Source: an uncultured cyanobacterium (GTDB lineage Bacteria; Cyanobacteriota; Cyanobacteriia; Cyanobacteriales; CAWCAG01). Taken from it: a DNA stretch of 64,000 nucleotides. Position 1 is the first letter of the stretch. The number at the start of each line of letters is the position of its first letter. The position numbers and the translations under genes are program-made. Shown in pieces: positions 33,428 to 33,672 of the stretch. The notes under the pieces are model-generated. The model was not told where the DNA came from and searched no databases. It saw only the letters and a list, made by a program, of their open reading frames with translations. Location of the stretch: positions 672,001 to 736,000 of the forward strand of contig CAWCAG010000009.1 of the NCBI GenBank assembly GCA_963793425.1, read 5' to 3'.

Positions 33428-33672
33428 GCAATACAATCGCATTATCTAGCGTGACCTAATCATGAGAGCATACATACCGAGTACGAGAGGAATAAGTACC
33501 TCTGCCCTAGTTGCAGAGGGCGTGAAACATTGTTGGTACAAAGAACCCGGCAGGTTGGCTTAGAAGCAGCCATCCTTTAAAGAGTGCGTAATAGCTCATC
33601 GGCGGAGTGCCTTCTGATGTGATGAACGCTAAAAAGCTCTGATAACTTGCACGCCAAGAGCGATTGTATTGC
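33428..33672 (+). ncRNA. Putative structured ncRNA containing 23S rRNA sarcin-ricin loop and H42-H44 (GTPase-associated centre) mimics
   Basis: Perfect 13-bp closing stem; AGTACGAGAGGA at 33480-33491; 33546-33603 colinear with 23S 1051-1108; no ORF. Confidence 0.8.

Follow-up and report, generated by a model that had tools for sequence, protein, structure and literature searches.

A 64,000-nucleotide (nt) stretch of DNA from the uncultured cyanobacterium CAWCAG01 (GCA_963793425.1, contig CAWCAG010000009.1, positions 672,001-736,000 of the forward strand; the whole stretch is referred to here as the window) carries a tRNA array on its + strand, and between a tRNA-Arg and an RNA-ligase gene of this array lies an RNA element that unites two sites of 23S ribosomal RNA (rRNA), the sarcin-ricin loop (SRL) and the L11-binding domain. 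The conserved core extends from one strand of its closing helix P1 to the other (33449-33654, +), about 205 nt as judged from an alignment of 63 non-redundant homologues, and the length is about 245 nt when an outer clamp stem seen in the window is counted. Our comparisons support the conclusion that the element is an evolved, selected RNA mimicking two rRNA sites, and that it is no recent copy of the host rRNA. The genomic context favours a role in the response to RNA damage or translational stress, and we tentatively propose that the RNA is induced by stress and stands in for the ribosomal GTPase centre as a decoy or bait.

The larger rRNA-like module is a copy of the top of 23S helix 42 together with helices 43 and 44, the L11-binding or GTPase-associated domain, at 33535-33611 (+). 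The Rfam model of the bacterial large-subunit (LSU) rRNA, RF02541, matches this segment at model positions 1080-1157 of 2925 with a score of 61.0 bits (E 1.4e-15), and the alignment includes the helix 42-44 structure and the kink-turn-42 region. The module opens with GGTAC at 33535-39 and closes with GTGCC at 33607-11, and between them 33546-33603 aligns without gaps to Escherichia coli 23S positions 1051-1108, with 49 of the 58 bases identical; the comparison used the 23S gene of a single record, whose length exceeds that of the customary numbering by one base. The window keeps an A at positions 1067 and 1095 (E. coli numbering), and the pairs 1054-1105 and 1058-1080 are both G-C, versus A-U and U-A in E. 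coli. The smaller module is the SRL 12-mer AGTACGAGAGGA (33480-33491), which is the same in the window, in E. coli 23S and in the 23S of the host. It is situated 43 nt upstream of the LSU-model match, and the order of the two sites is thus reversed relative to 23S rRNA.

The element is neither an LSU rRNA gene nor a recent pseudogene of one, as the LSU model is not covered colinearly and nothing beyond the 1080-1157 segment is matched. An Rfam scan of 33370-33810, with E values up to 10 admitted, returned only the LSU rRNA and a chance match to sR3, and ARAGORN found no tRNA inside the element. We considered a box C/D small RNA and rejected it, since the sR3 match, at 9.3 bits (E 7.1), falls far short of the gathering score of 41, and since members of the family do not share the GUGAUGA and CUGA words. 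The host genome contains two complete 23S genes (2740.9 bits each), and the element matches both at 87% identity over 55 nt with no further match; together with the wide conservation and the compensatory changes described below, this argues against a recent copy of host rRNA. Helix 43 of the host 23S reads GGTTTGCCCAGAAGCAGCAATCC, and certain other cyanobacterial 23S genes match helix 43 of the window at 93-98%.

Much of this had been anticipated by an initial annotation made from the letters of the window. Direct reading finds the 13-bp outer stem, the SRL 12-mer, the CCTCTGC/GCAGAGG hairpin and the GGTAC/GTGCC stem all where that annotation placed them; ARAGORN and Pfam confirm the tRNA array that it saw around the element and the neighbouring RNA ligase; and the Rfam scan gave, apart from the chance sR3 match, the partial LSU match it had predicted, with no family covering the whole architecture. 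Its alignment of the 58-mer was right about the absence of gaps, the two conserved adenines and the two compensatory pairs, but its count of 48 identities has to be corrected to 49. Its argument from helix 43 was that the window has the general bacterial form and not the one it gave for cyanobacteria; the host form is close to the latter without being identical to it, and some other cyanobacterial 23S genes come near to the window. The conclusion that it drew, that host rRNA was not recently copied, holds on the grounds given above.

To describe the fold we collapsed 149 sequences at 95% identity to the 63 non-redundant homologues, aligned these, and built a structure of 49 base pairs by hand, taking the Rfam alignment and the result of an unbiased scan for covariation as guides. 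This structure replaces the default RNAalifold consensus, which mis-paired the helix 43/44 region and paired TAC with GTA inside the SRL. Across the 63 sequences 95.0% of the 2983 cells are paired, and 21 of the 49 pairs have changes on both sides. None of 500 shuffled controls attains any of the five measures used, and sliding the partners by 1-3 columns reduces pairing to only 34-57%. The window sequence folded alone is also unusually stable (z = -3.5), with none of 200 shuffles equally stable.

The RNA forms a four-way junction from which the SRL hairpin, a variable hairpin and a long arm tipped by the L11-binding domain emanate. P1 pairs GCGTG at 33449-33453 with CACGC at 33650-33654 (columns 9-13 with 240-244) and is 97.1% paired, with changes from C-G to U-A and from G-C to A-U; P2, which closes the junction, pairs AGAGC at 33465-33469 with GCTCT at 33636-33640 (columns 27-32 with 225-229) and is 96.8% paired, its pair 27-229 being A-U in 38 sequences, G-C in 13 and G-U in 6. 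The SRL hairpin (33475-33498, +) comprises the 12-mer and a short stem (columns 38-43 with 57-63; 88.1% paired) and is preceded by an invariant UACAUAC. The 12-mer itself is invariant in all 20 representatives found by BLAST, which is the fair count because a pattern scan used to collect other copies itself required the 12-mer. In the position of helix 96 is the variable hairpin CCTCTGC/GCAGAGG (33500-33518, +), all six pairs of which show compensatory changes.

The long arm (33520-33629, +) consists of a base helix, in which GCG(T) at 33520-23 pairs with (A)CGC at 33627-29, a purine-rich internal loop, a helix-42-like stem, the kink-turn-42 region, and helices 43 and 44. Its pair 96-209 is C-G in 22 sequences, U-A in 22, U-G in 5 and G-C in 2, and pair 122-181 is C-G in 39 and U-A in 23. 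The arm occurs as two subtypes, with 52 and 11 of the 63 members respectively, and the window belongs to the minor one. In the major subtype AGUA stands opposite GAA in 39-49 of the 52 sequences, possibly forming a second bulged-G motif. A standard kink-turn at the arm base was considered and dismissed, given that the expected A varies in the major subtype and that only 6 of the 11 minor-subtype members fit; we describe the loop instead as a purine-rich loop with tandem G·A potential. At positions 1072/1092/1099, where 1072 and the 1092-1099 pair form a base triple in 23S rRNA, the bases change in concert: 57 sequences have U,U,A, three including the window have C,C,G, and the remaining three have other combinations.

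Outside the core, the window has a perfect 13-bp clamp stem between GCAATACAATCGC (33428-33440, +) and GCGATTGTATTGC (33660-33672, +). The flanks of most array copies likewise form duplexes, with energies of -12 to -25 kcal/mol, and these stems are often made of GCGATCGC repeats; averaged over all 63 representatives the clamp duplex energy is -12.5 kcal/mol versus -7.0 for shuffled flanks. The covarying helices are P1, P2 and the arm base, and the inner helices TTATC/GATAA and TAGCGT/ACGCTA proposed initially find no support in the family. The same is true of the sequence echoes proposed for helices 96 and 97: with all filters off, a profile of the family searched against host and E. coli 23S finds only helices 42-44 and the SRL, and no sequence of domain VI helices 94, 96 and 97. 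An AACTTGC word shared with E. coli is not significant. Of the suggestion that the RNA is domain VI with helices 42-44 grafted in, what remains is the resemblance of the four-way junction to that of helices 94-97; this likeness is supported as a topological one only, and in sequence it is limited to the SRL and the few bases that precede it.

A BLAST search of 401 genomes of the order gave matches spanning both modules in at least 104 of the 400 other genomes, among the matches listed. Twelve matches that seemed partial were full length by profile search in every case, and no variant missing one module was found among these 12 candidates. At least three genomes (G021, G078 and G100) have two copies located about 8.5-11 kb apart in arrays, and the profile search shows such a second copy (L175) to be full length. 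When one genome of each prokaryotic species was scanned with an exact pattern, at least 120 loci were recovered, almost all in filamentous cyanobacteria, with carriers in Nostoc, Microcoleus, Moorena, Oscillatoria, Dapis, Laspinema, Scytonema, Coleofasciculus, Elainella, Pantanalinema, Scytolyngbya and a Pseudanabaenaceae strain. Genomes outside the cyanobacteria were covered by this exact pattern only, and the distribution is a lower bound. One bin labelled Actinomycetota (L116) also carries the RNA, but the locus has a typical cyanobacterial array and GCGATCGC repeats, and this is probably a mis-binned contig. A sister species in the same genus has no copy.

There were no matches in viral contigs and no full-length matches in phage records, and on these grounds a phage origin is rejected. 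Plasmid records contain a single full-length match (Kovacikia minuta CCNUW1, 72% identity), and the other 638 match the rRNA-like part only.

The RNA occurs in two genomic settings. Same-strand tRNAs flank 36 of the 63 representatives, in the recurring order Gly(TCC), Gly(GCC), Val(TAC), Arg(TCT), RNA, Ala(TGC), His, Ser. Where there is a same-strand tRNA within 200 nt upstream (29 representatives), the nearest one is tRNA-Arg in 23, with anticodon TCT in 21, and the next gene downstream is usually another tRNA at a distance of 18-45 nt. Three arrays (L014, L016 and L111) have a CTA-anticodon tRNA in place of tRNA-Arg(TCT), of amber-suppressor type and labelled 'Pyl' by ARAGORN. In the window, tRNA-Gly(TCC) and tRNA-Arg(TCT) are immediately 5' of the RNA (33196-33367, +; ARAGORN and Rfam).

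The spacer that follows the upstream tRNA contains a conserved motif, AAGGAGGT, at 33386-33393 (+) in the window; of 29 representatives embedded in arrays, 28 have it at this place ahead of the core, and 22 of the 39 occurrences of this word in 183,524 nt fall 40-90 nt before the core. The motif is a perfect Shine-Dalgarno word and is often found in a hairpin with CCUUCUU or in a hairpin loop. A small reading frame following it was considered and rejected, as frames and stops differ among loci; possible roles include a tether to the 30S subunit, a processing signal, or protection.

Stand-alone copies have a different upstream signature. Tandem TGTAGTAT-like boxes spaced 8-10 nt apart are present 20-40 nt before P1 in 14 of the 30 representatives that stand alone, whereas the 33 array copies have none; the background is 11 sites in 180,059 nt. 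The site recognised by TrcR is TGTAGTAT (PMC10272220), and in the operator of the Anabaena trn operon the -10 box and start site are covered by two repeats of 9 nt with 2-3 nt between them (PMC8421152). Two such repeats are enough for translation inhibitors to induce expression, and rtcB is among the genes of the regulon (PMC8421152, PMC10272220). The array in the window has a comparable arrangement of boxes at its putative promoter (31364-31392, +; TTGACA, 17 nt, TAATAT), the best sigma-70-like site on the + strand of 31200-36400 (10/12), which is overlapped by two direct TGTAGTAT-like boxes at 31374-31381 (no mismatches) and 31385-31392 (one mismatch); promoter and operator function at this site are predicted from these motifs. 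The RNA has a fixed same-strand place in arrays, and two direct operator-like repeats precede many stand-alone copies and the array of the window, as expected of the L-array/TrcR regulon; the RNA would presumably be made when translation is impaired, via TrcR-type control.

In most stand-alone loci with enough flanking sequence a same-strand gene begins 11-170 nt after the core, and the gene directly following encodes Tpt1 in nine loci, a 283-amino acid (aa) protein in eight or nine, and a NADAR protein in three or four. For a wider view we clustered the open reading frames within about 2 kb of the 63 loci, some of which are only 700 nt long, and named the recurrent same-strand families using Pfam. 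These are NADAR (12 of the 63 loci), a 477-aa vWA protein resembling Ro60 and encoded upstream (11), the 283-aa protein (10), which belongs to no identified family and is usually followed by ThiF (8), microbial PARG (9), Tpt1/KptA (9), an AAA ATPase (6), HNH (4), and an RNA ligase that carries a tRNA-binding domain (3). These intervals showed no gene for a ribosomal protein. The window itself has a Macro-domain gene within the array (32098-32616, +; PF01661, E 3e-49), the RNA ligase with its N-terminal tRNA-binding domain (33803-35092, +; PF09414, E 3.5e-12, and PF01588, E 4.3e-8), which begins 130 nt 3' of the RNA, and a NADAR-domain gene (35206-35685, +; PF08719, E 8.9e-43). KptA, Macro, NADAR and RNA ligase have been described as one RNA-repair set (PMC9503650), and NADAR and bacterial PARG remove ADP-ribose from RNA (PMC11833690).

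The 477-aa vWA protein has more than 3000 homologues, those among the 120 best listed being 80-93% identical. It matches the TROVE chains 9l5y and 9kop over about 370 residues (E 0.0018), and of 13 Foldseek matches to its model with E up to 0.001 the best 12 are all Ro60, Rsr or TROVE (E 7e-7 to 6e-5), although the model is poor (pLDDT 52, TM-scores 0.18-0.26) and Pfam TROVE does not match the protein even at E up to 10. These weak sequence and fold matches suggest that it is probably a divergent Ro60. At one locus (L068) its gene ends 146 nt before the core. Nostoc-type stand-alone loci (L068, L076, L043, L082, L083, L092 and others) share the order Ro60-like 477-aa vWA protein, RNA, 283-aa protein and ThiF-family protein. 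The 283-aa protein has no Pfam or NCBIfam family and nothing in Atlas, and its AlphaFold model is too poor for use (pLDDT 41.5).

TrcR-like operators and neighbours that include Tpt1, NADAR, PARG, Macro, RNA ligase and Ro60-like genes favour a role for the RNA in an RNA-damage or translational-stress response, and within such a response the decoy is the interpretation that we prefer, while holding it as plausible and tentative rather than established. The RNA would be a stable, independently folding non-coding miniature of the factor-binding centre of the 50S subunit, consisting of the SRL hairpin and the L11-binding domain, and would be transcribed either within the long tRNA-array transcript or from its own promoter with TrcR-type operator repeats. 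In arrays, tRNA-processing enzymes would cut away the flanking tRNAs; the clamp stem there resembles an rRNA processing stem. Acting in trans, the decoy would offer the rRNA sites attacked by ribotoxic nucleases, N-glycosidases, RNA ADP-ribosyltransferases and thiopeptides, such that ribosomes would be spared and the damaged bait handled by the neighbouring Tpt1, NADAR, PARG, Macro and RNA-ligase proteins; the bait would thus parallel the spare tRNAs of the array that buffer tRNA damage. Attackers of both sites are known. The Rhs toxin Tre23 ADP-ribosylates helix 44 at 1095-1098 and blocks EF-G, VapC-mt20/26 cut 23S rRNA, the SRL is depurinated by enzymes of the ricin type, and helices 43/44 are the binding site of thiopeptides (PMC8661411). 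VapC, MazF and RelE RNases are induced early in stress, with the array, rtcB and ribosome-biogenesis genes following later (PMC8421152). The decoy fits best, in our view, because the SRL and the L11 arm are both intact, the RNA would be made along with spare tRNAs, and enzymes that clean and rejoin RNA are encoded next to it.

Several observations weigh against the decoy. The loop tips of helices 43 and 44, the contacts of EF-G, thiostrepton and Tre23, are variable, although one would expect a perfect decoy to preserve them: 52 sequences have A at position 1067, nine have G and two have C, A is kept at 1095 in 58 of the 63, and 1096, 1097 and also 1061 vary freely. In the Rfam alignment the kink-turn-42 loop departs from the rRNA consensus, which makes binding of uL10 uncertain. 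No toxin or drug has been identified that hits these cyanobacteria at the GTPase centre. The RNA is found in only about a quarter of the sampled genomes, again among the matches listed, and the plasmid search (PLSDB) gave no full-length match in any Nostoc or Anabaena record, so that the studied trn operon of PCC 7120 may lack the RNA, if PLSDB includes that plasmid. The Ro60-like gene upstream of the RNA in 11 of the 63 loci would suit a role like that of Y RNAs instead, and the close downstream gene of stand-alone copies, with no terminator seen between the two, makes a cis-acting leader possible. The proposal also goes beyond the observed sequence, fold, conservation, context and operator motifs to a transcription, ends, induction, processing and ligand that we infer.

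Some of the same facts could be accounted for if the RNA were a sponge or throttle that binds the cell's own uL11, uL10-bL12, uL6 and/or GTPases (EF-G, BipA or RelA-type) under stress, with the effect of slowing translation, storing stalk proteins from damaged ribosomes or altering alarmone synthesis. Helices 43/44 hardly vary in their L11-binding core, the tertiary triple included, the kink-turn 42 form is kept, both factor-contact elements always occur together, and the RNA is linked to a stress regulon; isolated SRL and helix 43/44 oligonucleotides are, moreover, each said to bind EF-G, reportedly in work by Munishkin and Wool from 1997. However, the neighbours are RNA-repair and ADP-ribose enzymes, with neither ribosomal proteins nor GTPases among them, the tips that contact the factors (1067 and 1095-1097) are variable, and down-regulation of EF-G itself begins early in the response to stress (PMC8421152). 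We regard this explanation as unlikely, though deserving of serious consideration. Rather more doubtful is that the RNA is a Y-RNA-like partner of the cyanobacterial Ro60 (TROVE-vWA) homologue, its closing stem binding the Ro-like protein and its rRNA-like module serving as a tether to ribosomal proteins, damaged ribosomes or nucleases. This draws on the 477-aa gene upstream on the same strand, with its TROVE sequence and Foldseek matches, and on the precedent of Salmonella, in which rsr, the Y RNA genes and rtcBA form a single RNA-repair operon. But no 477-aa gene is present within about 2 kb in the other 52 loci (some spanning only 700 nt), the protein lacks a Pfam TROVE match and is poorly modelled, and the RNA has no Rfam Y RNA match and no recognised Ro-binding helix motif.

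A cis-acting role, in which the RNA is a leader or sensor in the messenger for Tpt1, NADAR, RNA ligase or the 283-aa protein, would concern the stand-alone loci; expression would be set by the bound state of the RNA (free uL11/uL10 or a GTPase) or by ribosome-like damage to it (cleavage or modification). Promoter boxes right before P1, the same-strand gene soon after the core and the proximity of the ligase gene in the window are consistent with this, and rRNA mimicry is the usual logic of ribosomal-protein leaders. Array copies, however, usually precede a tRNA and therefore have nothing to regulate by translation, the families of the downstream genes differ among loci, and the clamp stem and P1 make a closed, self-contained fold; we consider a leader quite improbable. 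Very improbable, taken jointly, are two further roles: a free-standing functional GTPase centre that, with uL11 and the stalk proteins, recruits translational GTPases and sets off their hydrolysis of GTP away from the ribosome, and a prosthetic spare part, akin to the spare tRNAs, that docks on a damaged 50S subunit whose SRL or L11 arm was cut, depurinated or ADP-ribosylated. The two modules are always retained together, the long arm of the RNA occupies the place of helix 97, and in the ribosome the base of helix 42 contacts helix 97 of domain VI (PMC2330231). Finally, the derivation of both modules from rRNA and their reversed order might suggest a functionless relic of decaying, recombined rRNA fragments, or a chimeric assembly. 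The same architecture is present in more than 100 independently assembled genomes, which argues against the chimeric assembly that the initial annotation had allowed for, and the invariant SRL, the compensatory changes in 21 pairs, the syntenic position in arrays and the promoter motifs of the stand-alone copies all speak against decay. Distribution and covariation thus refute this explanation in practice, leaving it only the slightest probability.

Other features of the window lie around the RNA. The array opens with a block of tRNA-Cys(GCA), Tyr(GTA), Ser(GGA) and Met(CAT) at 31526-31955 (+), all called by ARAGORN; the Rfam tRNA model matches the first three, and no match is listed at tRNA-Met. 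Near its end is a second conserved non-tRNA RNA of about 270 nt (35728-36002, +), whose 5' GGGGAGG pairs with its 3' CCUCUCC in the fashion of an acceptor stem and which has D-arm-like and T-arm elements with about 185 nt inserted between them. It is present in 11 of the collected loci at 80-83% identity, and RNAalifold on seven copies gives 76 pairs, six of them with compensatory changes. In Rfam it gives only a weak match to the tmRNA model (18.2 bits, where the gathering score is 47) and a match to YrlA that stays below threshold and extends into the next tRNA, and this may be a giant tRNA-like or Y-like RNA. The tRNA that follows (36042-36140, +) is aberrant, with the anticodon loop CUUUUAA (Lys, UUU) and a 31-nt insertion in the T-loop region; it scores 57.7 bits with Rfam and is not called by ARAGORN. 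Past the array end, 36352-41232 on the - strand encodes a 593-aa CHAT-domain protein with a cadherin-like domain and an 895-aa protein in which a family-2 glycosyltransferase is joined to a TPS secretion domain. Further on, 53072-53128 (-) matches Rfam NsiR1 (nitrogen stress-induced RNA 1) with 47.9 bits against a gathering score of 39.

We have found no description of such an RNA in the literature, including the searched text of the tRNA-array papers PMC8421152, PMC10272220, PMC4758250 and PMC9679502; the term '23S' occurs nowhere in the searched text of PMC8421152 or PMC10272220. No Rfam family covers the element. To our knowledge no other natural RNA copies the factor-binding centre of the ribosome. 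If expressed as we propose, the element would be the first natural non-coding RNA known to do so, and would extend RNA mimicry, as seen in Y RNAs, tmRNA, 6S RNA and ribosomal-protein leaders, to the site of elongation factors, stringent factors, thiopeptides and ribotoxins. It bears on the question of which threats are countered by the long tRNA arrays and the genes for RNA repair and ADP-ribose metabolism that accompany them, and suggests that rRNA damage, besides tRNA damage, belongs to that conflict. The RNA also offers a natural construct of about 205 nt in which a single fold holds the SRL and the L11 domain, and which could serve directly in work on binding, structure and toxin specificity; a family of more than 100 genomes is large enough for rigorous covariation work.

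The closest relatives of the RNA are helices 42-44 and helix 95 of 23S rRNA, whose secondary structure, kink-turn-42 form and 1072/1092/1099 triple it keeps. The two sites, however, are about 1,550 nt apart in 23S rRNA and about 55 nt apart, reversed and placed in a small four-way junction, in the RNA; the remainder of the RNA has no detectable rRNA similarity, its helix 43/44 loop tips vary, and the triple is U,U,A in most of the family versus C,C,G in E. coli. The same two elements appear in the 'ribosome in pieces' experiments, in which fragments of the SRL and of the thiostrepton domain reportedly bind EF-G in vitro, but those are laboratory fragments used separately, whereas here they are fused in one conserved gene.

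Ribosomal-protein leaders, of which the L10 leader is an example mimicking an rRNA binding site, are likewise extra-ribosomal RNAs that copy a protein-binding site of rRNA, kink-turn included. The present RNA differs in having no ribosomal-protein genes downstream, in reproducing a whole domain almost base for base, in the addition of the SRL, in the location of many copies between tRNAs, and in matching no Rfam leader family. The bacterial Y RNAs YrlA (Rfam RF02553) and YrlB sit with Rsr (Ro60) in RNA-repair operons, and a module of YrlA mimics tRNA. They share with our RNA the character of a structured RNA that mimics an RNA of the translation machinery beside RNA-repair genes, with a putative Ro60 gene at 11 of the 63 loci, and the inclusion of rtcB in the TrcR regulon is a further likeness (PMC8421152, PMC10272220). 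The present RNA nevertheless mimics rRNA and not tRNA, has no Y RNA match in Rfam, and at most loci has no Ro-like gene nearby. With the cyanobacterial L-arrays and the trn operon it shares the operons themselves, the operator-like repeats and the logic of making extra translation RNAs under stress (PMC8421152, PMC10272220), but it is not a tRNA, and it occurs outside the arrays as well as within them.

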